Shown piece by piece: positions 8,020 to 52,574 of a stretch of DNA of 64,000 nt. The first letter of the stretch is position 1, and every line of letters begins with the position of its first letter. Under the pieces are notes generated by a model. It saw nothing but the letters and a program-made list of their open reading frames with translations. It was not told the origin of the DNA and made no database searches. Both the position numbers and the translations under genes were made by a program. This DNA comes from a virus (Duplodnaviria > Heunggongvirae > Uroviricota > Caudoviricetes): the IMG/VR virus record IMGVR_UViG_3300037042_007115; one strand, 5' to 3'.

Positions 8020-8020
8020 T

Positions 8021-8164
8021 TTACACCCCCAATGGATTTATGCTCATCGGCGTTGAAGATAAAACACAAGCAACCCCGGCATTCCCGGAACGGACAGAAT
8101 TCTCTAGGTACCAGCGAGCTATTTTTTCTAAATTTATTCTTGGGGGTAAAACAAAAAACTTCAA
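8021..8164 (-). CDS. Small hypothetical protein (47 aa, TTG start)
   Basis: GGTGAT SD 4 nt before TTG; fills the gap between 8170 and 8019. Confidence 0.4.
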   Translation of the reverse strand: MKFFVLPPRINLEKIARWYLENSVRSGNAGVACVLSSTPMSINPLGV

Positions 8165-8169
8165 GAAGA

Positions 8170-8574
8170 TCACCAATAACTGTATAAGCTCTTTCCACTC
8201 TTCCACTGGACATATGCCCAGAAATACACCATGTATAGTAGACCCTGGAGCATAACTGCAACGTATACTGGGAAATAAAACACATCCATCAATGCAGGAA
8301 TAATCAAAATTGCAGAGAGTATAAACCCAATAGCAACAAAGGTGGTTTCTATCACCCAAGAAGCTGCAACCATGAACATATCTCCCCCTGTGGCTGTTGC
8401 TGGGTTAGAGAAAGCATTCATTCCAGTTAAATTCTGGGAAAATAACTCACCCTTAGCCGCCATCATAAAACCAGTTGGATGTCCTGATAATACTGTTCCA
8501 AATCCCGATACATCTATGAATGTAATTGCTGCATTCAAGCATAGGCAAAATAATAAAATATCTACAGCTCGCAT
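8170..8574 (-). CDS. Membrane protein (134 aa), probable virion component
   Basis: ATG at 8574 directly after the upstream stop; several hydrophobic helices. Confidence 0.75.
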   Translation of the reverse strand: MRAVDILLFCLCLNAAITFIDVSGFGTVLSGHPTGFMMAAKGELFSQNLTGMNAFSNPATATGGDMFMVAASWVIETTFVAIGFILSAILIIPALMDVFYFPVYVAVMLQGLLYMVYFWAYVQWKSGKSLYSYW

Positions 8575-8575
8575 A

Positions 8576-11500: not shown

Positions 11501-14194
11501 ATACTGTATCTGCACTGTCCTATTCCGCGGAGTTTGATTATAAACTATTACCTCCAGGGGTGCTGCCCCTGGATTTGTCTTATAGCGAAGGGTAGCATCA
11601 GGATTAATGTTTATCCAATTATACTGACCCAGTCCATCAGTATACTCTGCATATGGTGTTGTTGTATTTCCAGTTTCTCTGGAGGTGGTGGACAACCTAA
11701 ATTCATCTAGATAGAAGTAGTTGTCCTGCCCAGCCTGTTGTGACCCGATAGAGAGGGGATTTGCCACAGCTAGTACTGTGGGAATTATTGTATCAGAAAG
11801 TCTGGTACCATCTGTATAAACTTCAATATTCCCGCCCTTCCGATATACCTTGAGCCAAGTCCATTGGTTATTAGGAATAGTAAAGTCTGGTGTCTTATTA
11901 GCAATGTCACCGACCCAGAATGAATAGGTAGAAGTAGTACCACCATTCCTGAGACCCCAACCCCCGGAGGTTCCGGCGCCATTTGAACTAGTACGTGAGA
12001 TAAGGTTTTTAGCGGTACTCCCCTGTACAGTGGGATAAATCCAGCACTCAAATTCAAAATCATTCGGCCCGATTACTGCGGCATAGCTAGAGAATATACG
12101 AGCATCGTTTGATTGAATCTCAAGTGATCTGCCCCCAAACTTAGTCTGAGTAGTACCAGTAACTGCTCCCCCAGCTGCTGACCAAGCATTTCCTTTTAGG
12201 TCAATAACTGAGACATTATTAAATGGTATCCAGGATTGTAACCAGGTATCATCATCATTCAGTAGATTAATGTACTTAGTTTTAGTACTGTTCATCCCCC
12301 AGACATCAGATACATTGAGGGTTACCGTGTAATTATTCCCCACATAATAAGTATATGATGGACTCCGATTACTACTATATCTTCCATCTCCGAAAGACCA
12401 GTTCCAGGATAGTGGACTCCCTGTAGAAGTATCAGTAAAATTAACTCTCATTGGAGAGGTAGAACTTGCATATAAACTAGCAGCAAAATCTGCACGAATA
12501 GTACTATCATTAGTTGTGTAAGTATTCCACTTTAACAGCTTTCCACTGGGATTTGTCCCCCCATAGATAGCTGTACCGTTCCCATCGTCAAACTGAGTCA
12601 AAGAATAAATGGTACCCTCTGACCCAAACTTATTTGCAACAGTCATCCAAGATGCAAGAGACCGGTTATATTTAAGCAAATAACCATTTGGAGAAGTACC
12701 GCCATAAACTGCGGCACCAGTACCATCATCATAGGTGGTTAATGCCCGGATATATGATTCTACTCCAGTAGTATTAGCAACTAGAGCCCACCCGCCCAGG
12801 GTCCTGTTATATTTCAATAATTTGGCTCCGGTACCTGTTCCACCAAAAATGGCGTTCCCTGTTCCGTCATCATAAGTGGTTAAACTTCTGATGGTTATTT
12901 GACCAGCAACGGGGTCAGCAACTTTAGCCCACCCCCCGAGAGACTGATTATATTTAAGGAGGTAAGCATTGTTCGAGGTACCGCCAAAAATGGCATTACC
13001 AGTCCCATCATCGTAAACGACTGTAGCATAAACATAATTCTCAGCAGCATAAGTAGTAGCTACCTGAGCCCAACCCGCTAAAGTCTGGTTGTATTTAAGT
13101 AATTTCCCACTAGTAGAAGTACTGGCGTAGAGAGCTAAACCAGTACCATCATTATATTGTGAGAAAGATCTAATCAGTGCCTCAGTAGAATATTTCGTAG
13201 CAACAGTTAACCAAGAGCCTAATGTAGCATTATATTTCTTTAACGTCCCATTAGTCCCTGTCCCACTGAAAATCGCAGGACCCGTACCATCATTAAAGTT
13301 GGTTAAAACTAAGCTACCAGACTCTCCCCCGGTTCCTGCAGCAGCCTGTGACCAATTTGCATAAGTTTTATTATATTTGTATAAAGCATCCCCAAGCCCA
13401 GAACACATTCCCCCATAAATAGTATTACTTGTACCGTCATCATATGTAGTTAAAGCACAGACATCACTATTAGGGGCGAGATATCCCGCAGCTTGTGACC
13501 AGGATAAATCATAATGATACGTGGGGTCAATAGTTAGGGGATAAGAAATAGGCACATAGTCGTATTTCTTAACTAATGTTGGATCAGCATCTATACCTCC
13601 AACAGTCTCTCCTATTTGTTCTGTAAGAGTTTGATTATAAATTCTAGCAGTTTTATCATATACTAAAGATAAAATCTCATCTGCATACTCATAATTCATC
13701 TCTACATATCTACCCTGGACATCAGTACCAAAAGGCTTAGAAATAACTATGCCTACTGAAGGATTCTGGGTATCTTTTACAATTTTCCACTCACCCGTAC
13801 CCCAGGGTATTAATGAAGAACCTGCTGCAAGTTGGATAGGAAATTTCAAATCTCTATCTTCTTTCAAAACTATGGTTTCTTTTAAAACCTCACCGTCATA
13901 GTCATAAGTAAAAGCCACCTTGGGATCATCAAAAATAAACCAAGCTTTCTCCCCTGTACCCCAAGTTAGGGACTCCCCAGAGGTAGCACTGGTAGCAGGA
14001 ATAAATTCTTGATTGTCTATGAGCGCGGAAGTTGTCACACCAAGGTCTGCGGCGCTAAAAGTAACATCACCCTGGGTAAGATTTACCCAAGTTGTAGACC
14101 CAACATTGACGCCTTCTTGTAAATCTAAAGCAGTTACCCCGCTTATCAGTAACAGTACCAGTAAGATTGAAAAAATTATAGGTTTTAGTCGCAT
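8576..14194 (-). CDS. 1872-aa spike/adhesin-like glycoprotein: signal peptide, YPLTIDPT-ending N-domain, YDDGTG propeller repeats, LamG-like domain, about 6 PKD domains, C-terminal TM helices
   Basis: ORF track; repeats of type TTYDDGTGxAIxGGT..LLKYNxTLxxW; LamG-like NQWTWLKVYRKGG..YLDEFRLS; PKD WNWSFGDG; hydrophobic C-terminus. Confidence 0.9.
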   Translation of the reverse strand: MRLKPIIFSILLVLLLISGVTALDLQEGVNVGSTTWVNLTQGDVTFSAADLGVTTSALIDNQEFIPATSATSGESLTWGTGEKAWFIFDDPKVAFTYDYDGEVLKETIVLKEDRDLKFPIQLAAGSSLIPWGTGEWKIVKDTQNPSVGIVISKPFGTDVQGRYVEMNYEYADEILSLVYDKTARIYNQTLTEQIGETVGGIDADPTLVKKYDYVPISYPLTIDPTYHYDLSWSQAAGYLAPNSDVCALTTYDDGTSNTIYGGMCSGLGDALYKYNKTYANWSQAAAGTGGESGSLVLTNFNDGTGPAIFSGTGTNGTLKKYNATLGSWLTVATKYSTEALIRSFSQYNDGTGLALYASTSTSGKLLKYNQTLAGWAQVATTYAAENYVYATVVYDDGTGNAIFGGTSNNAYLLKYNQSLGGWAKVADPVAGQITIRSLTTYDDGTGNAIFGGTGTGAKLLKYNRTLGGWALVANTTGVESYIRALTTYDDGTGAAVYGGTSPNGYLLKYNRSLASWMTVANKFGSEGTIYSLTQFDDGNGTAIYGGTNPSGKLLKWNTYTTNDSTIRADFAASLYASSTSPMRVNFTDTSTGSPLSWNWSFGDGRYSSNRSPSYTYYVGNNYTVTLNVSDVWGMNSTKTKYINLLNDDDTWLQSWIPFNNVSVIDLKGNAWSAAGGAVTGTTQTKFGGRSLEIQSNDARIFSSYAAVIGPNDFEFECWIYPTVQGSTAKNLISRTSSNGAGTSGGWGLRNGGTTSTYSFWVGDIANKTPDFTIPNNQWTWLKVYRKGGNIEVYTDGTRLSDTIIPTVLAVANPLSIGSQQAGQDNYFYLDEFRLSTTSRETGNTTTPYAEYTDGLGQYNWININPDATLRYKTNPGAAPLEVIVYNQTPRNRTVQIQYSTNATSIHGEVNYAPSIVTPVIVRLNNTVYNDMTLNSWNIDSTNGIVSFTVSRAAGIKTLVNNNRTDLVDISMLYSRYTPIDYYDTYFTSGSITDGQHAVTYPIINFISTPVYFGVWNFTTNFTANSLAPSVNSPVLFTSSFTGDYPNMWYWDFGDGTFDNGNNASTFHSYATSGFKTVTLMAYLGENFLINSTKVRTNYINVVDLPPAPVASFTISNTSGTQSLVVNFTDTSINTPTSWSWSFNNVTGNNTPVVWSTARSPTTTFEVGNFSIILTATNAWGSNISTQLAWVNVTAGPPIPPVASFTVDTPGGINPITAHFTDTSTNTPSSWSWTFLNVTGNNTPTVWSALQNPTGVFGIGNFSIILTSSNGGGSNISAQQTFINVSPYVAPPVIPVVSFMNNVSVGTAPLVVQFTDTSSNTPTGWNWSFRNITGNNTQVWWSQLQNPVKSFGIGNYSITLNASNGAGEASSSIPVVINVGPVPPAPVANFTADMVTFISPMTVQFTDTSSNSPTEWNWSFGDSTAWTNGSTQNPTHFYSAAGNYTVKLRASNANGGNLTTKTNYIWAKPPTYTVIPQMVLESQEYLLTLTFRDSVHNTLIKDNISVECVGTRADTIDSEGVGIIPITSSYGILTLYISAENYIGQVQVYLMDQDLSDTIYLVPAPIPPTPNPVMRYNPHQVRFIAKDYAGQPVKNVRVYAQGFESTANASWITAILGIDLATTAMDSEVMTGTTGSDGAVVFLMLESIQYHVNFTSSTLGVSESVDLFPKEDSYLVMVGTTATGSSDKMFGAGTGKIVRSLVSNQTGTKLFMNLSYLDAEGYTTSIYFYTEDANKTPLYNTTYIGASHDFSYVVDPFTHGATYYYGFTAQNSVYGPISGNSLVTTHSRLLAPLEYLGWDTSWYTWITIICLICFVAMFSGTTNVYGTLLFPFWALFFGYIGWLDWCPWEFLVAVAVLGTLAFVSKMNARVGEG

Positions 14195-16008
14195 TATAAC
14201 CCTCCAAATAGTTGTTGGAATGGTGTATAATTATTATAACGAACTAATCCCGAGGTAAGAGTATAAGTCCTGTTATTTACCGCATTATTAAATACATAAT
14301 ATCCTGCAGCATTTGTTCTAACAGTTGATAAGTTTCCACTAGCATTAAATGCAAAGACATATGCACCATCTGCTGGGCTATAATATGGTTTAAGACGTAC
14401 TAGGCCTCCTCCCGAAATCCCAACTGGAGTTAAAGTATTAGGTAGGAGGGGTATAGTTAAATTATAAGTTTTATGCCCAAGCGGAGTAAAACTAAAGTTA
14501 TCACTCCGGTATCCACTTGCAGTAGTACCAACATATAGTGGGGTACTAGTAGTCCAAGTTGCTGAATTATTAAACCTACCATTACTATCTGTAGTAGAAG
14601 TGGATGTGGAAAGTCCCTGCAGTAAAGTTATAGTAGCACCAAAAATGGGAGTAACATTAGGAGCATTTAAAACTTGCCCAATAATGATGATTTTATCTCT
14701 GATTTGTGTCTGGGCCCAGAATAAAGTAATAACTTTTGAATCACTTTTACGAACAGCATCCAATTCAGCAAAATAAATACCCTCAGAGTAAGTAACCGGG
14801 TTAAATGTAATATACTTATTACCAGATTGTCCCTGTAAGTCAAAAGTAGTCTTGAGTACTCCATTATAATCTAAGACTTTTATCTTATAATCATAAGTTT
14901 CAATATCATAGTTTCCATCTGAAATAGTATAGGTAATAGTAGCTGAATCAGTACTACTATATAATGTTCTATCCCAAGTAATAGTGGCCCCAGTAGCAAT
15001 ATACCAAATATCTGGGAACCCAGTAGCCCCAGAAAGTTCTGGCATAGACAATTGGTATTTACCATAAGGAGCAGCACTAGCAAAAAAGTGAACAAGATTA
15101 TAAGAGGCTATCCCTGCCCCAGTAGAAGCGTTAAAAGTTTCCCAAGTTACTCCTGAAGCATCGATTAAATTTACAGGAGTATTATTATGGTACCCGCAAA
15201 AAGCTACATTATTACCAAAGGTAGAGTAGAAAGTATTAGTCCTTACTATATTATTTAATGGGTCATATACCCCAGTAACAGCAGAATTTAATATATCCTT
15301 TCTTAAATACCAACCATATGGTAAAGTACCTATCTGTCCGCAGGAAGTATCCCCTAAGTTAATGTCATCAACCCACCAATCAGTGGGAACACTCGCATAA
15401 TTACTATCACCGCCATTTTGAATGTAGAATTTCATGTAAGAAGGAGCTACATTACTAGTACCTATTGTGCTTACAAAAACTCCATCCTTATATACTGACA
15501 TCGCTATACTATCGAGATTTCTAATAAATTCCCAGCGGTGGGGAACAGTATCGCGGAACTGAAGGTTATAGCCCCCATTATAAGAATATAATAGAGTTCC
15601 CTCGGAGTCATAAAACATCACTCCTTGCCAATAGTCCTGCCCGCCCCCAAAACCATAATTAAAATTATTAAATAGTGGTACAAGATTTTCAGTATTAGCC
15701 AGATAAGTCCCAACACTAGTAAAAGCAAAATAATTACTCGTTGTAGGAATATCATACCAAGCATAAGTATAAGCAACATGCCCCCAGTATCTTCCTGATT
15801 CTACATGAAGCTTCATACGAATCAACTCGGGATAGTTAGGCCTAGCAGCAATAGACATAGAAGAATAGGGAGGACTAATTTGATTGTCCGCACTAACATA
15901 GACCCAGCCTGTTTGACCTCCATCTTGAAAAGTCTCTAGTAATACTGCAGACGCCCCAGGAACTAATAGAAGTAAAAGTAGCCCCAACAACAAAATCTTA
16001 CCTTTCAT
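14194..16008 (-). CDS. 604-aa secreted beta-rich protein with carboxypeptidase-regulatory-like C-terminal repeats
   Basis: Signal peptide ..LLVPGASA; GQVLNAPNVTPIFGATITL..TTDSNGRF and RTNAAGYYVF motifs; GGTGAT SD. Confidence 0.8.
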   Translation of the reverse strand: MKGKILLLGLLLLLLVPGASAVLLETFQDGGQTGWVYVSADNQISPPYSSMSIAARPNYPELIRMKLHVESGRYWGHVAYTYAWYDIPTTSNYFAFTSVGTYLANTENLVPLFNNFNYGFGGGQDYWQGVMFYDSEGTLLYSYNGGYNLQFRDTVPHRWEFIRNLDSIAMSVYKDGVFVSTIGTSNVAPSYMKFYIQNGGDSNYASVPTDWWVDDINLGDTSCGQIGTLPYGWYLRKDILNSAVTGVYDPLNNIVRTNTFYSTFGNNVAFCGYHNNTPVNLIDASGVTWETFNASTGAGIASYNLVHFFASAAPYGKYQLSMPELSGATGFPDIWYIATGATITWDRTLYSSTDSATITYTISDGNYDIETYDYKIKVLDYNGVLKTTFDLQGQSGNKYITFNPVTYSEGIYFAELDAVRKSDSKVITLFWAQTQIRDKIIIIGQVLNAPNVTPIFGATITLLQGLSTSTSTTDSNGRFNNSATWTTSTPLYVGTTASGYRSDNFSFTPLGHKTYNLTIPLLPNTLTPVGISGGGLVRLKPYYSPADGAYVFAFNASGNLSTVRTNAAGYYVFNNAVNNRTYTLTSGLVRYNNYTPFQQLFGGL

Positions 16009-16014
16009 CTTAAA

Positions 16015-16293
16015 TCACCCATATTGCTTAGTATAAGTATGCACAGAAAAGACCAGCTTAATATACCAGATACCCACAATTATATTAATAGCTGCTATTA
16101 CAGTATAAAAATAATTGTGTAAACTATGCATAGTGTTGCCTGCTGTAGGAAGTGACCGAAGATCTGTAATAGTTATCTGATAATCTAAGATATCTACTAC
16201 AGGACCAATAATAACTACAATAATGATAGAGGCTAAAATTGTAACCATCAAAATAAAAGTAGCTCTTACCATATCCACGTCATTCTCTGGCAT
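16015..16293 (-). CDS. Small two-TM protein (92 aa), possible minor capsid protein
   Basis: Two hydrophobic helices separated by a polar loop; translationally coupled to neighbours. Confidence 0.7.
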   Translation of the reverse strand: MPENDVDMVRATFILMVTILASIIIVVIIGPVVDILDYQITITDLRSLPTAGNTMHSLHNYFYTVIAAINIIVGIWYIKLVFSVHTYTKQYG

Positions 16294-16577
16294 TAAAATA
16301 CATCTCCGCTTCTTTCCCTTACAGCATTCTTAATAGCGAAATATACTGCAGCAATCATTACCATTAAAGGTAAAATCCACCAAGCACTAAGTAAATTATT
16401 TAATAAGTCTTGCTTCTGTTGAGAAGAATGCATTGCTGGGTTATTAATCTGTGCATTAGATTGCGCAACCAAATCATCAACTATTCCACCAAACATAAGA
16501 TAAAAGAAGGCGAAGAACATTAGTAGGAGAAAGAAGTAAGTAATAACCCCCACAGATGCTTCTTCGTTTTTAATCAT
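16293..16577 (-). CDS. Small two-TM protein (94 aa) with a pilin-like N-terminus, possible minor capsid protein
   Basis: GAGGT SD before ATG 16577; MIKNEEASVGVITYFFLLL; two hydrophobic helices. Confidence 0.7.
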   Translation of the reverse strand: MIKNEEASVGVITYFFLLLMFFAFFYLMFGGIVDDLVAQSNAQINNPAMHSSQQKQDLLNNLLSAWWILPLMVMIAAVYFAIKNAVRERSGDVF

Positions 16578-16587
16578 GTTACCTCGG

Positions 16588-16947
16588 TTAAGTATAACCG
16601 TCTTTCTTTTTCTTTCCAGACCCTTTAGACTGTGGCTCTGACACAGGGGCTGGTTCGGGTTCTGGGTCTTCAGATTCTGCCTCATCCTCTTCCGGTAAAG
16701 CTTCGGGCTGAAGTTCAAGGCCTAAACGCTTAAGTTCTTCCGGGTCAGTTACAACAAGTTTCCCCTCATTATTAATTCCCAAATAGTCCTTGGCATCTTC
16801 CATATAAGCTAAGTATGATGCTTGAAGAACTTCTATTTCCGCTTCTGACATCTGTGCAGCAAACCGCTGCAGCACACTCATAATAAGTTGTGCACGGCCA
16901 GCATCTTCAATCATTTTCTTCAGGTATGTACGTGTATCGAGATCCAT
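16588..16947 (-). CDS. Hypothetical protein (119 aa) with acidic/Pro-rich tail
   Basis: ORF track; AT-rich promoter-like region upstream. Confidence 0.7.
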   Translation of the reverse strand: MDLDTRTYLKKMIEDAGRAQLIMSVLQRFAAQMSEAEIEVLQASYLAYMEDAKDYLGINNEGKLVVTDPEELKRLGLELQPEALPEEDEAESEDPEPEPAPVSEPQSKGSGKKKKDGYT

Positions 16948-17237: not shown

Positions 17238-20200
17238 TCAACCCCTCTTTGGTACTACTTTGAAGGGCTTGGGGGCTATTTTAGTGAGCCCCGGACCCCG
17301 TCGTGCAATTGCCCCCAGATCGGAGCCAAAACTACTAATTTGGGATACCTTAGTACCTACCTTTACCTTGGGTGCCTTTATGGTATCAAACTTCATTGGT
17401 GCTGTTCTAAGTACCGCTTTTTCAGGTGAAACTACGGTTTTGATTGTTTGCTTCACTGTAGCTACCTGGGGTAATGCTCCGGTCTTAGCTAATTTTTTAA
17501 CTCCGGCATTCAACCTACCCATCATCTGTCCAACTGAAGCTATCCGGGTAACTTCCCTAAAGGCAAAACTGCCCCTAGGTCCTCCACCCGCGCTACCGCC
17601 TCCGCCGTCTCCTCCGCCGCCACCAATTGGGGGTGGAGGAGTTTGAGGCGGCCTATCTCTTATAATATAATCATCTATTGGCTCATAGGGGGGCTTAGGT
17701 TTATAATCATCCGCTGGAGGAATATATTCATCTTTTGGGGGAGGATATTCATCTTTGGGGGGAATATACTCATCTTTAGGAGGCTTATACTCATCTTTTG
17801 GCTTATACTCATCTTTTGGCTTATACTCATCTTTAAGTTTATACTCATCTTTTGGTTTATATTCATCTTTTGGTTTATATTCATCTTTTGGTTTATACCC
17901 TTCTTTAGGCTTATAAGTATCTTTAAGCTTATAATTGTCTTTAGGCTTATATTCCTCTTTAGGCTTATATTCCTCTTTAGGCTTATATTCCTCTTTAGGC
18001 TTATATTCCTCTTTAGGCTTATACTCCTCTTTAGGCTTATATTCCTCTTTAGGCTTATATTCCTCTTTAGGCTTATATTCCTCTTTAGGCTTATATTCCT
18101 CTTTAGGCTTATATTCCTCTTTAGGCTTAGGCTTATATTCCTCTTTAGGCTTAGGCTTATATTCCTCTTTAGGCTTGGATTTGGCCGTTTCTTTGGGTTT
18201 GGCTGCTCTTTTAGCTGCTTGATCCATCCTCTCCGCCTCGGTCATTCTAACAAACCCCTCATCCATTAAAGTATATCTCTGTTTGAGGTATTCAACCTTG
18301 GTTAATTTACCAGCTTTGTAATCAGCATCAAGTAAATCTAGTCTCTTATACATTTTTTGTCTTTGAATACCAAAAGGAGAAGTATCTACTAGAGAACTTA
18401 CTGGCTTTTTTCCCCCCGGGGTATTAGTGGGTACATTAATAGGCTTTCTATATACCCCATTCCCAAGATCGATATATCCATCCCCCTTCAACGTTAACTT
18501 TTGCCCCGGAGTTAACGAGTAACCCTCCGGAACTATTATAGTCCCATCTGTACGGGGCCTCGGGATCCCACTCCAATCTGCATCTCCTGCTGCTACGGGT
18601 TTAGCAACTGGTTTAGCAACTGGTTTAGCAACTGGTTTAGCAACTGGTTTAGCAACTGGTTTAGCAACTGGTTTAGCAACTGGAGAACTTATTGGCTTTT
18701 TTCCACTGCCAGAGTTTATAAATTCTACCAGAGGATTTGCCCCTGGCTTAGATTTTACTACCGGTACGGGTTTAGCAACTGGTTTAGCAACTGGTTTAGC
18801 AACTGGTTTAGCAACTGGAGAACTTATTGGCTTTTTTCCACTGACAGAGTTTATAAATTCTACCAGAGGATTTGCCCCTGGCTTAGATTTTACTACCGGT
18901 ACGGGTTTAGCAACTGGTTTAGCAACTGGTTTAGCAATATTTTTAATCCTTGCCCCAGCACCCAAAACTTCTTCAGTAGTAGAAGCAAACTTTAATCCCA
19001 AACTCGAAATGGGTCCCTCGGGTACAACATATGCATGAGAAACATAAGATCCTTTCCTACCAAAAACATCCACGTCTGCTACACCAGTTCTCTGGCCCAC
19101 AACTCTTAAACCCTCTTTAGTTCTAAATTCAAAAAGCTCTGTCTGCCCAGGTTTTAAATCAACCTGTTTTATATACTTACCTACTTTGCCCCCACTACTT
19201 ACTTGAGCTTCAAAGAGGGGTAACTCTGAGCTAGGTACAATCCCGCGAGTATGCCCCAATTCTTGAAACCCACCTACACTATTAGGGGATCTTACTTTCT
19301 CTACATTCCCAAAAACAAACTCAGGATAATTTTTAGGGTTTATATTAGGCCCAGGTTTTACTATGGGTACTGGTTCTGCTACTACCGGTTTAGGTATGGG
19401 AACCCCTGCACCCCCTGGGATAACCGGCTCTACTACCGGCCTTTTCCCCCCCTCAATTGCTGCTCTAACTCTAGCACTTTGGGCTTCAGCAAAACTTGTC
19501 CCGGATTTAACCTTTGCCTCTTTAACTAATGCATCTCTAGCTAATTCTGCTGTAAACAACTCATCACTAAGTATCTTTTGTTGAGCATATCCCTCTTTAT
19601 ACCTTATCTTTCCTTGAGATTGTGCCTCACGTACCTGAAGAATTTCTTGATTAATGGCTTCTATAGTACGTGGGGTTGAGGGCTTAGGTGCTGCCACACC
19701 GGTGGGTGGTTTGATTCCGGTAGCATCATCTATGCGTGCTAGAGCTTGATTTACCTGCTCTACAAACTGTAGGGAGGAAGTACCCGGTTTCCGTACTATT
19801 CCAAGCTTCTTTGCTATGGCTGTTTTTGTTGCAAGATCTGATACTTGAGCCGGAGTTCTTACCTCACCAAGTGCATCTGACATAGCTTTTGCTTTTGCTT
19901 GAGCAATAAAATCCTTAACAGTACTACCGGGTTTTACCTCTATGCCTAGCTCCCGACCTGCCCCAGCTAGTGCTGCATCGGTCGACTGAGCTTTTACCCC
20001 GGTAATTGCTTCTCTAATAAAATTACGCGGAGATACCTGAGGCTCCTTAAGACCCGACCCACCCTCTGATAGAGGTTTAAATGCATCTTCTCTAACTTGA
20101 TTAATCCTCTCCGCCTGGGCTAGGGGCTCCTTAAGACCTATTTCTTTACCAGCCACACCAAGTGCCTGCTTTTGGGCAAGTAGTTCCTGCGGTGTAAATA

Positions 20201-23200
20201 CCCTAAGAACTTTCTTTTGTGGTATAGCATCAGGGGCCATTGATGCCTGCCACTCCACCCTACCTGTCCCCCTATTCTTATTTATACCCCTAATAATTTG
20301 AGTATCTATTCCAAAGTCTTGATAAACCTTCCTATAAACAACTTTGCTAGATTCATCTAAAGCTTTTGCGATTTTTGCAAAAGCTTTAGGATTAGTTATG
20401 ACCATAGACCCATCGGGGCCCACACTGTATGCTGTCTTTTTAATTTCAAACATATTATTAAATGCATTTTGCAACTCAACATTACTTAACCTAACAGGAT
20501 CAATTCCATAGTAAGATCTAACCCCGGCCCTTGCTTGAATCACTTTAAGATCCAATATTTGCTGTGGTGAAAGCTTGACGTCTCCCTTCCCTTTAATAAG
20601 ACGAATTACCCCATTAGGTGTTACTGTATAAGCTGAGGTTTGTCCCGGATTAGAAAGTAATGCTTCAATATCAGTTATTGAGGCATGACTTGCGGCTCGC
20701 TCCGAAGCAGGTAGTAATACCGGATTCTCTACAGATCTAATAGGATGATTATGAGCATCTGTCTTGATTGTTATTCCTCTCTCCGGGTCAAATTGCCGAG
20801 TAACCCTAGTAGCAGAACTAATCTCAATATCAGGAATTATGGTAACCCCGGTTGGAGATTTGCTTATACTATGCTCAACTCTAGTAGTCCGGTCCATCAA
20901 CTCAATAACATGTTCTGGTAATGGTGTTGAACGCCCAGAAGAAGCTTTAAACTTCACGGCAGTACGAGCTGAAGCAGGTCTTACTACTCTAGATGCTCCA
21001 GAAGGTCTTAAAACTACTTTATTTCCAGCCACACGATTTATTTCTGCCAACTGAGCCGGAGTTCTTACCCCACCAAGTGCATCTGACATAGCTTTTGCTT
21101 TTGCTTGTGAGACAAAATCTTTAACGGAAGTCCCTGGCTTTACTTCTATACCCAACTCTTTACCTGCCCCAGCTAATGCATCTGTCATTGCTTTTGATTT
21201 TGCTTGAGCAATAAAATCCTTAACAGTACTACCGGGTTTTACCTCTATGCCTAACTCCCGACCTGCTCCAGCTAGTGCTGCATCGGTCGACTGAGCTTTT
21301 ACCCCGGTAATTGCTTCTCTAATAAAATTACGCGGAGTCACTTGAGGCTTAGCTTTAACTATAGTCTTTGCCCGGTTTATAATTAACATATAGTCTATAC
21401 CATTAGGACCAAAATCAATCGCATCATAGCCTAATATTTGAGCAAACCTCCCATCATTAAGAAGGATTTTTTTCTCCCTAAGAATCTGATCAGCTTGGCT
21501 AGGATTCTTCCTTTCATATGCATCCATTTGTTTATACCAAGCTTCTTTCTGCATACGCAAATCAGTAATTTTAACAACTTTAGCATCTTTAGCTAAGGTC
21601 ATCTCCATAAGATTAGCAGAGTTGTCGACATTTTTTATAGGGTTTTTTGCGTACATAGAAGCAATCTTTTCTGCATCTGCACCATAAGCAGTATAAGTAC
21701 CACTACCTACACCCCCCTGCCTAACCACATTCTTTTTTCCTTCAACAAAAGCTCGTATATTTTTCTCTTCAGCTACCCCACGAAGAAGCCTTATACTACC
21801 AGAATTAACCTGTGCCTCAAAAGTAGCAGCATCAACTACTTTTGGAGGAAGATCTGCTCCTGCTTCTCGCATTAGTAAATCCATTGCTGGGTCATATACA
21901 GCATTATGAGGATCTATATCTCTGAAGCGAGGCCGGGTAATCTTCTTTAAAACAGCACTCTCAGCCGAACGCCCAACATCTACTGCTAGTGGAGGACCAA
22001 AAGGTAATGGACCAGTCTTTATTGTCCTTGACCCAATATCTGTAACTTCTCCAAGAACTTTTACTACTGCTCCTTGGTTTTCTGGTATATTCCAGGTCCT
22101 ACTGGGATCTACAAACTTATTCTTCCCTAGCCCAAACACCGCTTTAATTTTCTGGCCGGTAGTGGTCGCTTGGCCCCAACGATACCCGGTACGGTCTGCA
22201 GTAGCAAAAGCCTTCTCAAAGTTTGAGGGGTTGTCAAGTAAAGCCGTCTTCAAAACTTTAATTGGGTGCTTCCAAGAATATATAGGTTCAATATTCATGT
22301 GTTTTTCAACAGCACCCGCTACCTGGGCAACCTCAGCAGGTGTAAAACCCTTCATTGATTCTGGAAGATAATAACCCCTACGTATAACTTCTGCAGCAGC
22401 CTTACCGTGTGAGAAGGGAATAGTATCTATATCAGAAACTTTAGCTAAGTCATGTGCAATAGCTGTAGCTTTTATTACTTTAGGTGAAACCTCACTTTTT
22501 AGTGTTGGGCTACTCCACATCTGATCTAGTGCACCCTTCTCAACAGCAGCAATATGAGCCCGCCCGTGTGCCTGATGAGACCAGGGGAGTTCATAGGCTT
22601 TACCTTGAAGTTGTAAATCTTTGAATGCCATGTCTTGTGCATGGGATTTAAGGTAGCTCTCTGTAGCAGTACGAGTATATGCTCTATTCTCAGCCAAAGT
22701 CTGCCCTAAAGTTTCAGTTATTGGTGCTTGAGTACCAAACCTCACCTTGCGAATAGGTACCCCTGACTCAGTGTATCCTGCAAATGCGGTACTAGTAACC
22801 CGGCTAGATAAAGGATTATTCTTACCATAAACTACTAACATTTCAGCTTCAGGGTAAGTACTAGCAAAAGCACGTTTTGGTGAAAGAGTTACTACGGGTT
22901 GACCAATTCTATCTGCTTTTGCTTGAGCTTTATCCAGGAGTTTCTTATATAAAGGAAGATCTAGACCCTCTGGTCTAGCAGCTTGAAGTTTAACAAGGTT
23001 TTTCTCTGCCGCGGTTAACTCAGAAGCAACAGTTTGCAAATTCTCAAACCTATTAATCTCAGAACCTATAAGAATACCCTCATTCTTAGAAATAAACTTC
23101 TCACCAATATTTCGCTGTAAAACCTTCCCCGTACCCCCCTCTACACTACTGGGATTAACAAAGGTCCCCTCAGTACTCGCAATCTCCCGAGCCGCAGGAG

Positions 23201-26200
23201 AACTTCGTTGAGCCAGAGGCATATTCTTTTCTCCCAACTCAGTCTTAAAGTAATCCCAAGTTCCCCCAAGCTTTTGTTTCAAGTTAGAATAAGCACTATT
23301 TCTAGTAGCTGTCTGCATATCCTGAATAACGGGCTTATCAAGAACATCAGCAATTGCTCGAGCAGGATCAGCACGAGGAATTCCGTGTGGTTCATTTAAT
23401 CTGGGGCGAGCAGTCACTGTAGAAGTATCAACAACACCAGTAGGAGAACCAGTAACTTTGAATACTTTACGGGATAACGGAGAAATAGCTCTTGTACCTA
23501 CCTTCTCTAAGCCTCCCATGGTCACAGCGGCTCCGGCCATACTCCAAGCAAAATCCTTGGGGTTAGTAGTAGCTTGCTCCCAAACTTGCCCAGGCATTGC
23601 ATATAGTGCTGCACCAGTAATTACTGCAGCTTGAACTGGATTCTTGGCCGCTAATTCAACAGCAACAGGAAGAAGGCCCCCGGTATATGCAAGAGTACCA
23701 GGAACATCTCTAATTATAATATTGCCTCCATGAATAAGCTCCTGTGTTCCAGCTTTAACTAACCCGTCAGGCATTTGACTTAATGACCTATTCTGGCCCT
23801 CTTCCATCTTGACCATGCCTCGATTAACCGCAGAAGTAAATTCTTTCATGCCAGTCCAAACCCAACCGGTACGAAGTCCCTGAGCTTTTTCCTTTTCATC
23901 CCAGTATTCACCCCGGAGAACCTTCTGATCCTGGGTATTAACTGCATCAGACATCTCTTTATAAGCCTTATTCCTAGCCGCTGATTCCTCCGATGACTGG
24001 GAAGCGGGAAGTCCCTTTATTTGTTCCAGGGCTATGTCATAATCAGCACGCATCTGTTTCTGAGTCGCCAATTCTGCCTCAGTAGACTTTAAATCTGCGG
24101 GCCTAGAAAATTCCCTGGGTTTAAAGGTAGACATAATCACATTGGGAACATTGATGGCAGCTTGTAACGGAGTTACCCCGAATTTCCAATTCTTTTCATC
24201 TGCTCTTTGCCCCACCATAACTCCTTCCCAGGTACGTCCCGCAGTCCCGAAAGTAGCATCTCTTATCTTATCCATTATTCCCCCGAATATAACAGTTTTC
24301 TGTGGGGGAGTCCCTGAAGTCGAAGCAGGAGAAACTGCGGGAGTCGAAGCAGGGGAAACTGCGGGAGCCATAGCCGGAGTCATCTGAGGTCCAAATCCTA
24401 CTCTAGAGCCGTCGTCGGTCTGAGCAGCAGTTACTATAAATGGGTTCCACCTATTTATAGATTTATTAACATCTTGAATTGCATCCCAAACTGGATTAGT
24501 TGTTTTCTTAGGAGTAAACCCTACAGTATCTGCTTTAGTTTGAGTTGGAACAAATGTCTGTGTTGGGGTAGACACAGATGCGTTGGCTGCCTTTAAGGGT
24601 CCTCGTTGAGGCATGGGAGTTAATCCAGTACCGGCAGGAGCTTGACCTGCTTGCGCCCCTACTGGTGGAGCAAATGCTCCCCTACCCTTTTCTCCTACCC
24701 TAAGACCCGCGGGCCCGCCAAGACTTAACTCTTGGATTCCCCAAGGTAAGTTTTTACTTCCTATACCTTGATAGGGATTGTTCTTCCCCAATAAAGCGGG
24801 ATTTCCCTGAGGAGTTTTTAGTGCAGATATTAGGTCGGACACGGATGCGTCATAGTCCGGCATCTTCGCAGGAAGAACTGTGTATTTAGCATAAACGGGA
24901 TTGTTCCTAGCATTATTAACAGCATTTGCTAGATAAATATCCCCGCCTTGAGTTGCCTGCTCTAAGACCGCATTACCCCCAGTTAAGTCGCCCCAGAACT
25001 TGGTGTTGGGTGTTCCGCCAGTCATGTCCTGGTGAACGATTTCTGATTTAATAAGTGCTCGATCGGCTACGGCTTCATGGTCGTTGTAGGGAATCCAAAT
25101 GTTTTCCTTGATAGTATAGTGGTGAAGTTCACTAGAGTCTCTCTGCTTATTATAGTAGATGTGGTCAAGTTCTGTCTCTAAACTATTTTTTTGCCGTTCA
25201 GTAAGACCCCCTTGAGCCAGCTTCCCTATGGCCTCTTTCTCGGTCATAGTAGTTATATATCTCTCACCCTCTGGAACAACCAGCTTAGTTGGGTCTCCTA
25301 CCATTTTTAAGCCCTTATACCCCGGGGCCATACTATCGTAATAATCGGCTGCCTGAGCTGCTTGTTGTTTCTGTGCCTCAGTAAGTGATTCTCCGGGAGC
25401 ATATTCTCTATTTCGGGGTTCTGGGGCACCCTCCGTACCCACTAGCGGAGGAGTACGTTCAGTCATACTAACTCCTTCGACAACACCTGTTCCTGCTCCT
25501 AGAGCAACAGGAACTACAGCTGATTTAATTGGGCCGGGAGAATAATCCGCTCCGGCCTTTTTATAGGGGAACGTAGATTCTGGAGATTTAGGTTGAAATA
25601 AAGTCTTTGCTGCAAAATTTCCAAGGGCTGCAGCACCCAATAATGGTAAACCCATTGGTCCAGCCACTGCTGCTAAAGGAATTACAGCTAGTGCGGGCCA
25701 GGATACCCCAGAAGCCGGGGCTTGTGCCGGAGTAGACACAGAAGCCGGGGCTTGTGCCGGAGTAGACACAGATGCTGGCCCTGATCCAAATGGGTTCCAC
25801 TTGTTTATAGATTTATTAGCATCTTGAATTGTCCTTCCAAGGGCTGCAGCACCCAATAATGGTAAACCCATTGGTCCTAGGGCAGAGCCCCCAATTGCAG
25901 CTAAAGCGGGCCAGGATACCCCTTCCCAAGATGTCCCTACGCGGGGGACCGGAGTAAACCCTACAGTATCTGCTTTAACTTGGGTTGGCATAACCGTTTG
26001 TCGTGGGGCAGTAACTAAAGAACCCGCCCGATTAATCTGTCCTAGAATTGGTATGCTGCCCAACCCTGAATTAATCTTACTAATATCCTGGGCCCGTTGA
26101 ACAGGCGCTGCTGTAACGGCTGAACCCATTCTATTAATGGTACTAAGACCGGGTATTTGTTGGAAAATACTATTTCCTTTAGATAAAAAACTCTCTACTG

Positions 26201-26798
26201 AACTTCCTTGTGCTGCCCTCGGGGATACTTGAGCAGCAAAAGGTTTCCCTACGCTAAGAATATCTAATTTTACAGGAGTTGCAAAAGAAAGAGGAGCACC
26301 CAGGGGCCCAACAAAAGGGGCCGCAGACTTAGTAACAGCAACTTGCCCAGTATTAGAAAATGCTGGTCCGGCTACTCTTCCTACATCCTGAAGGGTCCTA
26401 CCCGCGGCTTGTTTTCCTATTTCCAATGCACTAGTAATGGGTTTACTCATAACAGAGAGAGAATTAAGCCCCCTGGATATGGGTTGAGCTGCAGTAGCTA
26501 CTTGACGCCAGCTAGAATCAAGGGTATTACTAAAAACTTGCCTACCCCCAATATAAGCAACAGCGGCTGGAGCAACCCAAGGGTTAGATCCGCCGCCTCC
26601 ACCGCCTCCGCCACCCCCACCATATGAACTACCCCCGCTACCAGACCCGGGACTACCCCCGCCACCACTACTGGGCCTGTAGGGAGCAACAACATTTTGA
26701 ATTGTAGAAGTTACTGCCGCAGTTCCTTGACCGATTACTCCTCCCACATATTGAGCGACCTGATTAATCGGTGTTGTGATAAAATCCCAAAAGCCCAT
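17238..26798 (-). CDS. 3186-aa multidomain polyvalent-type protein (HD hydrolase, ART-like, JAB-like, GAP1-N2-like domains plus low-complexity repeats)
   Basis: GGAGG SD; uninterrupted ORF; motifs HGRAH..AHDLAK..HG..KH..ADR, GSGTYTA..GYDAI..LIINR, HNHP..SITD, GRKGSYVSHAYVV. Confidence 0.9.
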   Translation of the reverse strand: MGFWDFITTPINQVAQYVGGVIGQGTAAVTSTIQNVVAPYRPSSGGGGSPGSGSGGSSYGGGGGGGGGGGSNPWVAPAAVAYIGGRQVFSNTLDSSWRQVATAAQPISRGLNSLSVMSKPITSALEIGKQAAGRTLQDVGRVAGPAFSNTGQVAVTKSAAPFVGPLGAPLSFATPVKLDILSVGKPFAAQVSPRAAQGSSVESFLSKGNSIFQQIPGLSTINRMGSAVTAAPVQRAQDISKINSGLGSIPILGQINRAGSLVTAPRQTVMPTQVKADTVGFTPVPRVGTSWEGVSWPALAAIGGSALGPMGLPLLGAAALGRTIQDANKSINKWNPFGSGPASVSTPAQAPASVSTPAQAPASGVSWPALAVIPLAAVAGPMGLPLLGAAALGNFAAKTLFQPKSPESTFPYKKAGADYSPGPIKSAVVPVALGAGTGVVEGVSMTERTPPLVGTEGAPEPRNREYAPGESLTEAQKQQAAQAADYYDSMAPGYKGLKMVGDPTKLVVPEGERYITTMTEKEAIGKLAQGGLTERQKNSLETELDHIYYNKQRDSSELHHYTIKENIWIPYNDHEAVADRALIKSEIVHQDMTGGTPNTKFWGDLTGGNAVLEQATQGGDIYLANAVNNARNNPVYAKYTVLPAKMPDYDASVSDLISALKTPQGNPALLGKNNPYQGIGSKNLPWGIQELSLGGPAGLRVGEKGRGAFAPPVGAQAGQAPAGTGLTPMPQRGPLKAANASVSTPTQTFVPTQTKADTVGFTPKKTTNPVWDAIQDVNKSINRWNPFIVTAAQTDDGSRVGFGPQMTPAMAPAVSPASTPAVSPASTSGTPPQKTVIFGGIMDKIRDATFGTAGRTWEGVMVGQRADEKNWKFGVTPLQAAINVPNVIMSTFKPREFSRPADLKSTEAELATQKQMRADYDIALEQIKGLPASQSSEESAARNKAYKEMSDAVNTQDQKVLRGEYWDEKEKAQGLRTGWVWTGMKEFTSAVNRGMVKMEEGQNRSLSQMPDGLVKAGTQELIHGGNIIIRDVPGTLAYTGGLLPVAVELAAKNPVQAAVITGAALYAMPGQVWEQATTNPKDFAWSMAGAAVTMGGLEKVGTRAISPLSRKVFKVTGSPTGVVDTSTVTARPRLNEPHGIPRADPARAIADVLDKPVIQDMQTATRNSAYSNLKQKLGGTWDYFKTELGEKNMPLAQRSSPAAREIASTEGTFVNPSSVEGGTGKVLQRNIGEKFISKNEGILIGSEINRFENLQTVASELTAAEKNLVKLQAARPEGLDLPLYKKLLDKAQAKADRIGQPVVTLSPKRAFASTYPEAEMLVVYGKNNPLSSRVTSTAFAGYTESGVPIRKVRFGTQAPITETLGQTLAENRAYTRTATESYLKSHAQDMAFKDLQLQGKAYELPWSHQAHGRAHIAAVEKGALDQMWSSPTLKSEVSPKVIKATAIAHDLAKVSDIDTIPFSHGKAAAEVIRRGYYLPESMKGFTPAEVAQVAGAVEKHMNIEPIYSWKHPIKVLKTALLDNPSNFEKAFATADRTGYRWGQATTTGQKIKAVFGLGKNKFVDPSRTWNIPENQGAVVKVLGEVTDIGSRTIKTGPLPFGPPLAVDVGRSAESAVLKKITRPRFRDIDPHNAVYDPAMDLLMREAGADLPPKVVDAATFEAQVNSGSIRLLRGVAEEKNIRAFVEGKKNVVRQGGVGSGTYTAYGADAEKIASMYAKNPIKNVDNSANLMEMTLAKDAKVVKITDLRMQKEAWYKQMDAYERKNPSQADQILREKKILLNDGRFAQILGYDAIDFGPNGIDYMLIINRAKTIVKAKPQVTPRNFIREAITGVKAQSTDAALAGAGRELGIEVKPGSTVKDFIAQAKSKAMTDALAGAGKELGIEVKPGTSVKDFVSQAKAKAMSDALGGVRTPAQLAEINRVAGNKVVLRPSGASRVVRPASARTAVKFKASSGRSTPLPEHVIELMDRTTRVEHSISKSPTGVTIIPDIEISSATRVTRQFDPERGITIKTDAHNHPIRSVENPVLLPASERAASHASITDIEALLSNPGQTSAYTVTPNGVIRLIKGKGDVKLSPQQILDLKVIQARAGVRSYYGIDPVRLSNVELQNAFNNMFEIKKTAYSVGPDGSMVITNPKAFAKIAKALDESSKVVYRKVYQDFGIDTQIIRGINKNRGTGRVEWQASMAPDAIPQKKVLRVFTPQELLAQKQALGVAGKEIGLKEPLAQAERINQVREDAFKPLSEGGSGLKEPQVSPRNFIREAITGVKAQSTDAALAGAGRELGIEVKPGSTVKDFIAQAKAKAMSDALGEVRTPAQVSDLATKTAIAKKLGIVRKPGTSSLQFVEQVNQALARIDDATGIKPPTGVAAPKPSTPRTIEAINQEILQVREAQSQGKIRYKEGYAQQKILSDELFTAELARDALVKEAKVKSGTSFAEAQSARVRAAIEGGKRPVVEPVIPGGAGVPIPKPVVAEPVPIVKPGPNINPKNYPEFVFGNVEKVRSPNSVGGFQELGHTRGIVPSSELPLFEAQVSSGGKVGKYIKQVDLKPGQTELFEFRTKEGLRVVGQRTGVADVDVFGRKGSYVSHAYVVPEGPISSLGLKFASTTEEVLGAGARIKNIAKPVAKPVAKPVPVVKSKPGANPLVEFINSVSGKKPISSPVAKPVAKPVAKPVAKPVPVVKSKPGANPLVEFINSGSGKKPISSPVAKPVAKPVAKPVAKPVAKPVAKPVAKPVAAGDADWSGIPRPRTDGTIIVPEGYSLTPGQKLTLKGDGYIDLGNGVYRKPINVPTNTPGGKKPVSSLVDTSPFGIQRQKMYKRLDLLDADYKAGKLTKVEYLKQRYTLMDEGFVRMTEAERMDQAAKRAAKPKETAKSKPKEEYKPKPKEEYKPKPKEEYKPKEEYKPKEEYKPKEEYKPKEEYKPKEEYKPKEEYKPKEEYKPKEEYKPKEEYKPKDNYKLKDTYKPKEGYKPKDEYKPKDEYKPKDEYKLKDEYKPKDEYKPKDEYKPPKDEYIPPKDEYPPPKDEYIPPADDYKPKPPYEPIDDYIIRDRPPQTPPPPIGGGGGDGGGGSAGGGPRGSFAFREVTRIASVGQMMGRLNAGVKKLAKTGALPQVATVKQTIKTVVSPEKAVLRTAPMKFDTIKAPKVKVGTKVSQISSFGSDLGAIARRGPGLTKIAPKPFKVVPKRG
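17760..18175 (-). repeat. 18-bp tandem repeat encoding (KPKEEY)n and (KPKDEY)n
   Basis: Plus-strand unit TTTAGGCTTATATTCCTC repeated many times, degenerating leftward. Confidence 0.95.
18595..18935 (-). repeat. 12-bp tandem repeats encoding (AKPV)n in three blocks, separated by a duplicated spacer
   Basis: TTTAGCAACTGG units; spacer PVVKSKPGANPLVEFINSxSGKKPISS present twice. Confidence 0.9.
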
Positions 26799-26934: not shown

Positions 26935-27834
26935 TTAGAGATATTTCTCCCCGGGCCCAAGCAGGGAATCTTTCTTATAGTTGCGAATATCAGATAACTG
27001 CTCCATGTCCGGGTCTTTATCTTTAGACTTGCCTCTACCCTTACGGGGTTTCTCTTCATTAGCACCCGCAAGTCCCTCCCGCATCTCTTGAAGCATCTCA
27101 GTAACATACACATCCTTCCTTGCCTCATATGGGATCAGAAGTGAATTAGGCGGCTTCCTAAATCCCACTCTTGTAATCTTTCTCTTCTCATGCGTCACAG
27201 GGTCGTGTACACGGGGCAATGCACGAGTTACTATATCATTCCAATCATCCTCTGCACTGATGATATAATATGAAGCCCAACAAATATTATTTCTATAATC
27301 AATCTCCCTAGTCTTAATCCATAGATGGAATAGTCGACGTGCATTTTTATCAAGCATTGCTAAGTTAGGTAACGTAAAAATAGTTGGAATCTGAAGGTAC
27401 CTAAAGGTCTTAAGAATATTAGAGAAGAAAACATTTTTCTTAGATGAGCTTCTTCTTGCATCTAAGTCTACTCCTGCTTCATCAAAGATGATAACCTTAC
27501 CAGGCCCTAGCACTTCCATAATAGTAAGAAACTCCTCGACGGTAAAGACTACTTGGGCCGGTGTGAAAGTAGGATCAATTAACCTAGCAAACTCCAAAGC
27601 TGATAGACTTTTTCCTGTTCCCGTCTGACCGGTAATGACACACAGAAGGTTCTGGTTGCGTGCAAGCCTCTTACGGGCTAGACTTACTGGGTCCCACTTA
27701 AGGGAAAGATCCATATCTGGATTATTATATGAGCGATAAGTAGGCTTATCCCAACCCAGTGCCGCTAAGGCAGAGGGGGAAATAGGGTATGGGCTACTAA
27801 GAGCATCCATCACTGCGGTAGAAAACTGTGACAT
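26935..27834 (-). CDS. P-loop ATPase (299 aa), probable packaging/morphogenesis ATPase
   Basis: Walker A VITGQTGTGKS; Walker B IIFDEAG; located in the virion module. Confidence 0.85.
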   Translation of the reverse strand: MSQFSTAVMDALSSPYPISPSALAALGWDKPTYRSYNNPDMDLSLKWDPVSLARKRLARNQNLLCVITGQTGTGKSLSALEFARLIDPTFTPAQVVFTVEEFLTIMEVLGPGKVIIFDEAGVDLDARRSSSKKNVFFSNILKTFRYLQIPTIFTLPNLAMLDKNARRLFHLWIKTREIDYRNNICWASYYIISAEDDWNDIVTRALPRVHDPVTHEKRKITRVGFRKPPNSLLIPYEARKDVYVTEMLQEMREGLAGANEEKPRKGRGKSKDKDPDMEQLSDIRNYKKDSLLGPGEKYL

Positions 27835-29311: not shown

Positions 29312-29566
29312 TTAATTCTCCTTTCTTTTAAATAAATTTAAGATTGGCTTCCTTACATCATATCCTAACATGGTCATAATACAAACCTCCCAGACTAAGA
29401 GCCCGCATAGAGCAATTAATATGGTGAATAGGCCGGGCATACAGATAAATACTTCTGGGCTACTTGCCGGGTAAGAGAACCCTACACATCGCGCAGGAAG
29501 AAATGGGTCTGTCCCGGATGAAAAGTATATGCAGAGATAGTCCCACCACATCTCAAAGTTTATCAT
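29312..29566 (-). CDS. Small membrane protein (84 aa)
   Basis: ORF track; one TM helix. Confidence 0.55.
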   Translation of the reverse strand: MINFEMWWDYLCIYFSSGTDPFLPARCVGFSYPASSPEVFICMPGLFTILIALCGLLVWEVCIMTMLGYDVRKPILNLFKRKEN

Positions 29567-32234: not shown

Positions 32235-32555
32235 TTACTGCCCAGACTGCATGATGTTAGTAAAGCCAAAGACATATGCAATGGCAATACCACCAACCGC
32301 GGCTAAAATCAGCATGGGGAGCCACCCAAAAGCACTGTCAATTGACGTTGCAAGAGTCGTCGCGGTCTTGTTAAACTGTGCATCTGGCGCAAATTTAACA
32401 GTGTCCATTGCCTGTTGGGCAAGCCCAAGCCCAACAACACCGACGAGAAGGATGACTACGAATGAAATAACCAAACGTGGAAGTTCCTCTAAAATCCCGA
32501 TCACCTCTGATAAGTAAACTAAGATGGAACCTACAAACATATAAAAGTAACCCAA
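32235..32555 (-). CDS. Putative major capsid protein, spindle-shaped-virus (SSV1 VP1/His1-like) two-helix type; start uncertain (32555, 32540 or ATT at 32495)
   Basis: Two long hydrophobic helices joined by a polar loop (..AQFNKTATTLATSIDSAFGWLPMLILAAVGGIAIAYVFGF); own terminator; very strong SD; virion-module context. Confidence 0.65.
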   Translation of the reverse strand: MGYFYMFVGSILVYLSEVIGILEELPRLVISFVVILLVGVVGLGLAQQAMDTVKFAPDAQFNKTATTLATSIDSAFGWLPMLILAAVGGIAIAYVFGFTNIMQSGQ

Positions 32556-41588: not shown

Positions 41589-41608
41589 ATACCATACAAA
41601 AAAAGGGA

Positions 41609-52559: not shown

Positions 52560-52574
52560 ATGTCGAGTTTTTGT

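Follow-up and report, generated by a model that had tools for sequence, protein, structure and literature searches.

The window analysed here (64,000 nucleotides) encodes a protein of 3186 amino acids that, on balance, probably serves spindle-shaped viruses of methanogens as a polymorphic effector carrier; we infer that it is packaged in the virion and delivered together with the DNA. The carrier role is deduced from its orthologues, in which a shared scaffold at both termini encloses differing middles. If it is true, effector co-delivery needs no tailed head, and a convergent carrier exists in budding archaeal viruses of the spindle type. Nearly all descriptions of host-manipulating enzymes being delivered with viral DNA concern tailed phages of bacteria. 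A large uncharacterised gene of this morphogenesis module would also gain a function, and a source of anti-defence enzymes acting in methanogens would be at hand. Beyond an earlier sequence-only reading of this DNA, the conserved scaffold with exchangeable cargo, the obligate coupling of two of its enzyme domains and the misfit with several criteria for polyvalent proteins are new.

The ORF runs without interruption over 3186 codons on the minus strand, from position 26798 to 17238, as had been claimed, and its ATG is preceded by an AGGAGG Shine-Dalgarno sequence. N-glycosylation sequons are depleted in the protein (4 compared to 13.7 expected). All motifs quoted in the sequence-only reading were recovered in their places: PEAEMLV at aa 1316 (nt 22853), the HD motifs at aa 1411–1535 (nt 22568–22196), RLLRG..GYDAI..LIINR at aa 1670–1809 (nt 21791–21372), HNHP at aa 2016 (nt 20753) and the GAP1-like motif at aa 2576 (nt 19073). 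Pfam and homologue searches with the full-length protein yielded no match, whole-protein searches of PHROGs, PADLOC and PDB sequences gave nothing or noise, and IMG/VR scans gave almost no matches. Support for the individual domain names is graded: strong for HD, good for the ExE-type ADP-ribosyltransferase (ART), moderate for a second ART, probable for JAB and weak for GAP1-N2.

The gene is located in a morphogenesis operon, between an ATPase gene directly upstream and genes for adhesins, and synteny of the locus was observed in at least eight relatives. The region comprises:

17238..26798, minus strand: giant ORF; 3186 aa, 341 kDa, pI 9.6, no Cys, no signal peptide
26935..27834, minus strand: Zot/B251-like P-loop ATPase of spindle-shaped viruses (phrog_5484, E 3e-13)
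32235..32555, minus strand: candidate two-helix hydrophobic major capsid protein, from the family profile; start uncertain
16015..16947, minus strand: three small genes conserved downstream of the giant gene, two of them for two-helix membrane proteins
1..16008, minus strand: three adhesin-like proteins (604, 1872 and >2673 aa) with signal peptide, rich in sequons, with PKD and related domains

The ATPase, capsid-like and adhesin neighbours point to a virus of the spindle-shaped type as the source, in support of the earlier assignment to a non-tailed archaeal virus. The B251/Zot-like morphogenetic ATPase, a criterion for spindle-shaped archaeal viruses, is present; a comparison with 50,697 phage records yielded relatives only in the lemon-shaped virus LSV-48N and in Halorubrum spindle-shaped virus BLv25. 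For the small two-helix protein, the best PDB match of the profile is SSV19 VP1 (E 0.81, weak but specific), and the same profile picks the annotated major capsid protein of BLv25 among 41 proteins (E 0.0018). Two-helix proteins of relatives match the PHROG virion structural protein phrog_16261 (E 1e-4 and 0.01). Methanogens, i.e. methane-making archaea, are probably the hosts, because sequence homologues occur in Methanosarcina; a host search in GTDB genomes using the ATPase found none.

LSV-48N, BLv25 and Itzamnaviridae/tepeuvirus resemble the source virus in a homologous ATPase, two-helix capsid-type proteins and adhesins (PMC12714723, PMC9894754). The equivalent slot in LSV-48N is occupied by a low-complexity protein of 679–824 aa without enzyme cargo. 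It was rejected as a scaffold homologue, since the sequence similarity is not significant, and is a positional analogue only. Genomes of spindle-shaped haloviruses and Itzamnaviridae/tepeuvirus span 13–73 kb, with 72.6 kb for the largest ANME-1 spindle virus (PMC9894754), whereas the source contig has 178 kb and its relatives have 101–202 kb (L003 201 kb, L004 163 kb, L006 182 kb). Provided that these viruses are spindle-shaped, they far exceed in genome size the ANME-1 and halophile examples compared.

The scaffold of the giant protein is composed of an amphipathic N-terminus, the N-domain, a helical pre-cargo region, Pro/Tyr/Lys repeats, a C-terminal motif and a basic tail. From the N- to the C-terminus, the following segments were delineated:

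24729..25391, minus strand: N-terminal globular scaffold domain, aa 470–690; ~60% identical in the relatives L001, L008 and L017; no Pfam match
23469..23777, minus strand: mildly hydrophobic helical 'pre-cargo' region, aa ~1008–1110; common to the ART-HD family (profile E 1.7e-8)
22683..23231, minus strand: ART-A, predicted ADP-ribosyltransferase-fold domain; Arg1198 in strand 1, Glu1317-x-Glu1319
22164..22616, minus strand: predicted HD phosphohydrolase; full set of ligands (H1411, H1415, H1449-D1450, H1464, H1500, D1535)
21345..21908, minus strand: ART-B, putative PARP-like ART; strand 1 with Arg, strand 2 with Tyr, catalytic position without acidic residue
21063..21350, minus strand: block 1 of the helical repeats (33-aa units), flanking the JAB-like cassette on its left
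20574..20906, minus strand: probable JAB/MPN-fold domain; upstream Glu, HNHP, SxxD, spacer longer than canonical
19863..20042, minus strand: helical repeat block 2; DNA 93% identical to block 1
18984..19331, minus strand: possible GAP1-N2-like domain (weak)
17727..18965, minus strand: tandem repeats with units of 12 nt and 18 nt, rich in Pro/Lys and in Tyr/Lys/Pro
17241..17570, minus strand: conserved C-terminal motif (aromatic-x-Glu..Ile..Ser/Thr..), then basic tail; net +16 in the last 90 aa

Almost every full-length homologue has a basic tail. The slot of the giant protein is occupied by proteins of 2192, 2040 and 2623 aa in its nearest relatives (ATPase 80–84% identical). Those of L001 (2192 aa) and L008 (2040 aa) have only aa 1–770 and 2830–3170 in common with it, and neither ART nor HD was found in their unrelated middles. 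L017 shares the scaffold, ART-A and HD (52% over aa 429–1653), with ART-A as the best conserved segment (65%). After HD, this protein continues directly with the C-terminal repeats, where the contig ends, indicating that the block from ART-B onward (ART-B/JAB) is a later insertion. At the level of sequence, the comparison of these orthologues shows gain and loss of enzyme cassettes in the scaffold middle.

The scaffold family also includes a more extreme polyvalent case, the 6432-aa protein of L013, which adjoins an ART-HD protein and features five JAB-like repeats, faint GNAT matches and the same C-terminal motif; the similarity of its JAB repeats to the JAB-like unit of the giant protein was not above that of shuffles. 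Its C-terminal half (L013:1–9997) contains ParB-like, ART-like and HExxH segments by eye. More distant viruses possess two to four scaffold-like genes in tandem, with cargo that is NTase-like (by eye) or methyltransferase-like. The scaffold proteins at L003:14011–18693 and L006:13186–17793 appear by eye to carry AbiEii/MenT-type nucleotidyltransferase-like cargo; a Pfam scan of the L003 protein was negative.

A phmmer search with aa 1120–2200 resolved two families, A (ExE unit and HD) and B (RLLRG unit). The ExE+HD stretch gave ~30 protein matches among 1.84 billion representatives (best E 2e-41); like those of the RLLRG unit given below, these exceed what chance would produce. Homologues in family A are ~30% identical and share an invariant PK motif (29–30 sequences). 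Modelled alone, ART-A reached an AF2 pLDDT of 82, and 42/42 structural matches with Z ≥ 2 are ART-fold proteins, with RES toxins and the SdeA mART at the top (best Z 4.6). Since the Z values are low, the fold rests on the unanimity of the matches and no subfamily is singled out; querying ART-A in the structure searches of Foldseek and Atlas returned nothing significant. An ART fold of the ExE unit is thus predicted with good support. This unit, previously noted as a possible ART-like one, turned out to be the better conserved of the two ARTs: ExE is found in 28–29 of 29 ART-A homologues and the strand-1 Arg in 22 of 25, with the closest orthologue, L017, missing the Arg.

The HD domain matches Pfam HD (E 0.0055), and the family A AF2 model matches HD proteins with Z 8–10.7 (VIA). 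The His/HD ligands are invariant in 30 sequences, the last Asp in 28/30. The prediction of an HD fold with the canonical ligand pattern H..HD..H..H..D is therefore strong, which confirms the HD hydrolase proposed earlier. ART-A directly precedes HD in 29/29 ART-A matches and none of these 29 contains ART-B, although some ascertainment bias is left in these counts because the query held both domains. Judged by them, ART-A and HD travel as one conserved, coupled cassette, which was not found in a literature search. The obligate pairing suggests linked chemistry, in which HD may shorten ADP-ribose to phosphoribose or break down nucleotide signals that infection elicits. We offer only as a speculation that spindle viruses of methanogens own a so far undescribed DNA-coupled effector-delivery protein whose most frequent cargo, the ART-HD unit, ADP-ribosylates a host target and then cleaves the pyrophosphate, leaving a phosphoribosyl mark immune to macrodomain/ARH-type erasers (or achieving a SidE-style ligation). 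In that case, it would represent a new modification chemistry in archaea.

The RLLRG unit (family B) yielded ~120 protein matches among the same 1.84 billion representatives, many of them short or of other architectures. All eight PDB matches of the ART-B profile are PARP15 (weak, E 0.2–0.75), and family members show scattered matches to four ART families (ART-PolyVal, PARP, DUF3990 and Exotoxin A). Column counts revealed Met/Leu/Tyr/Val where the catalytic Glu/Asp of strand 5 is expected, and Arg replaces His in the PARP-like triad. Profile comparison of ART-A and ART-B was not significant. The homologues and weak profile matches give moderate support to a PARP-like ART, so that the earlier ART-like label is retained, but for a unit without the catalytic Glu. 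This residue is also missing in some mono-ARTs.

For the HNHP unit, the closest Atlas language-model neighbours are DUF4329 and Toxin-JAB1 (0.88–0.89); no Pfam/HMM match was obtained and homologue searches were empty. Motif and neighbours make a JAB domain probable, in line with the JAB/MPN-like claim. The unit is flanked by direct repeats of 183 nt (93% identical, 1305 nt apart). As this spacing keeps the frame, repeat recombination would excise the unit in frame. The duplicated helical linkers described before hence exist as flanks of the JAB-like unit, but the other domains are not separated by them. Five 33-aa helix-loop-helix-like units lie around the JAB cassette (19740–21350) and may be nucleic-acid-binding modules. 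Assignments of the repeats as HEH/Rho-N or ubiquitin-like found no support, the weak matches being judged spurious for 33-aa units. The motif proposed to be GAP1-N2-like was located, but its profile score is below threshold: GAP1-N2 is the top Pfam match (E 0.074, 13.5 bits compared to a cut-off of 24) only on a 61-aa fragment narrowed post hoc, and other domain searches and Atlas were empty for the segment. GAP1-N/M/C architectures stand next to a DO-GTPase gene (PMC7159879), whereas this segment is internal to a viral protein and has no such neighbour.

A member of the ART-HD family, MM_2760, is encoded in Methanosarcina mazei. Its locus in assembly CP117271 is an integrated element of ~20 kb (L021:1180–20355) that corresponds to the Go1 region and carries genes for an integrase, a DUF927 protein, the ART-HD giant, a capsid-like 85-aa protein, a resolvase and a B251-like ATPase. 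The latter belongs to the same family as the ATPase of the window (E 6e-19), and no adhesin gene is visible in the element. Based on gene content, it is apparently an undescribed spindle-type provirus or satellite; no paper on MM_2760 was found in the literature searched, in which many journals were not covered. As M. mazei is genetically tractable, delivery and chemistry can be tested directly in this species.

Compared to polyvalent proteins (PMC5512222), the giant protein is likewise very large, joins unrelated enzymes (ART and JAB, with GNAT and NTase-like cargo in relatives), is encoded among late genes and appears to have grown from smaller versions by domain accretion. However, the ARTs of polyvalent proteins are of the H-Y-D type (ART-PolyVal), whereas R..ExE (ART-A) and R-Y without an acidic residue (ART-B) are found here. 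Viral carriers of polyvalent proteins are terminase-portal phages, in contrast to a spindle-type module in the 64 of 178 kb read, and archaea are poor in such proteins (PMC5512222). Searches with the whole protein or pieces against Pfam, PHROG and PADLOC revealed no polyvalent anchor domain (MPTase, ArdC-N, MuF, DarA/B, N4 RNAP, relaxase, LPD), and no release protease, including MPTase, was detected. The term 'HD domain' is absent from PMC5512222. The earlier designation as polyvalent-type thus holds for the large multi-enzyme chain and its late-gene context, but neither for the ART type nor for the carrier, which is not of the terminase-portal/T4SS kind. The protein would work like a polyvalent protein but is not assigned to that class in the strict sense. 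The idea of a multi-enzyme protein in a virion-morphogenesis module stands, given the predicted ART and HD folds and the ATPase and adhesin neighbours.

T4 Alt and MuF-fused virion ARTs are of the ExE type and encoded with morphogenesis genes, with injection known or proposed (PMC9503650), and so provide a precedent for delivery. The giant protein resembles them in an ExE-type ART beside morphogenesis genes, but has no Alt/VIP2 or MuF sequence match, belongs to an archaeal non-tailed virus and has HD fused. Legionella SidE/SdeA (mART, PDE and DUB) is similar in that an ART adjoins a domain of phosphodiesterase fold, and an isopeptidase fold may also be present. The SdeA mART is among the top ART-A matches (Z 4.5) and the SidE/SdeD PDE matches HD (Z 6.4–7.0), values that are not specific to SidE. 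The HD domain keeps its canonical metal-binding ligands, whereas the PDE of SidE lies before the mART, needs no metal and has eukaryotic ubiquitin as its substrate. In SidE-type phosphoribosyl ligases, mART and PDE work one after the other through a phospho-His. The resemblance is therefore one of predicted folds and an analogy only. RES-domain toxins (MbcT, ParT, NatT) gave the best Z values for ART-A (4.2–4.6), but with a high rmsd (5–5.5 Å), no antitoxin neighbour at the giant gene and Z values tied with other ARTs. For spindle-shaped viruses, no description of an ART or a giant effector was found in the literature searched, in which many journals were not covered.

As an effector carrier, the giant protein would be made late and stay on the cytoplasmic side, with its basic tail binding the viral DNA and tying the protein to the genome. 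It would be enclosed in the virion lumen at budding and enter the next cell with the genome. The cargo would start with an ART of the ExE type linked to an HD phosphohydrolase of the di-metal kind (predicted structure), followed by later additions: the PARP-like ART, the probable JAB and smaller units. The ARTs may use up NAD+ or modify proteins or nucleic acids of the host, and HD may cleave a nucleotide phosphoester, either in ADP-ribose made by its partner or in an immune-signalling nucleotide, so that early host defence would be blunted. The adhesins have signal peptides and are rich in sequons; the giant protein differs from them in lacking both a signal peptide and Cys and in having few sequons, indicating that it faces the cytoplasm or the virion lumen. 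In spindle-shaped viruses, nucleoprotein is released by budding, and a tail serves to eject the DNA (PMC10791045). Packaging gains indirect support from the positional analogue P_03685 of LSV-48N (679 aa), which was abundant in virus-containing supernatant, with 52 peptides and an iBAQ of 1.4e8, compared to 4.5e6 for the ATPase (PMC12714723 Dataset EV2), in a sample that is a crude precipitate with many host proteins (PMC12714723).

The route of a 341-kDa chain through the tail of a spindle virus lacks explanation, which argues against delivery, as do the failure to detect a release protease in the protein and the absence of a visible adhesin gene from the M. mazei element. The protein might instead be a morphogenesis factor or nucleoid scaffold retained in the chronically infected cell, with cargo that acts late, suppressing defence during budding or excluding superinfection. 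The cytoplasm-side features fit this equally well, spindle-shaped viruses are often chronic and budding (PMC10791045; PMC12714723), and a homologue is retained in the integrated M. mazei element without a visible adhesin. We nevertheless regard action in the producer cell as possible at most, since many unrelated enzymes on one structural-operon protein are best explained by joint delivery (the argument of PMC5512222), a 178-kb genome could hold stand-alone genes, and the LSV-48N analogue was detected extracellularly.

It is improbable that virions or vesicles bring the cargo to competing non-immune cells or viruses, killing or inhibiting them, as a polymorphic toxin would. A virus replicating in the recipient profits little from its death, the cargo is internal instead of C-terminal, and no immunity gene varies with it: the same 119–122-aa protein follows the giant in the window, L001 and L008. 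These points outweigh the conserved carrier with variable enzyme cargo, the RES NADase toxins among the nearest ART folds, the JAB lead to Toxin-JAB1/DUF4329 and the NTase-like cargo (by eye) of L003/L006. Just as doubtful is a largely disordered structural spacer, similar to a tape measure or DNA pilot, with an insertion-tolerant middle and enzyme-like domains as partly inactive passengers. L001 and L008 lack these enzymes, and tandem and cassette-flanking repeats mark a permissive region. The absence of the strand-1 Arg from ART-A of L017 and of the catalytic Glu from ART-B fits a spacer and argues against an effector carrier. Mere passengers, however, would hardly account for ExE, PK and HD ligands that are (near-)invariant across 29–30 homologues at ~30% identity, or for the constant pairing of ART and HD. 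An effector carrier is in agreement with both.

Several further genes were observed in the window and its relatives. The adhesin of >2673 aa (1–8019) is Gly-rich and DUF2341-like, with PKD repeats, and runs off the window edge. Within the structural operon, HNH-like and LAGLIDADG-like homing endonuclease ORFs were recognised by eye (29563–30519 and 32675–33763), which L001 does not have there. A RepB-type primase fused to DUF3987 (37351–39783) is conserved beside the structural module in L001. By eye, a nucleotide kinase, an RNase H, a ThyA-fold protein and a stand-alone HD protein (RelA/SpoT-hydrolase-like) are encoded at 36402–37019, 41118–42385, 46184–46795, and a TROVE/Ro60 gene is located at 52560–54107. 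The capsid-protein gene of L008 is present as two identical tandem copies (L008:258–1108). In the 163–202 kb relatives, an archaeal histone gene heads the operon of the ATPase and the giant protein (L003:8497–8733, L004:8439–8645, L006:8385–8600).
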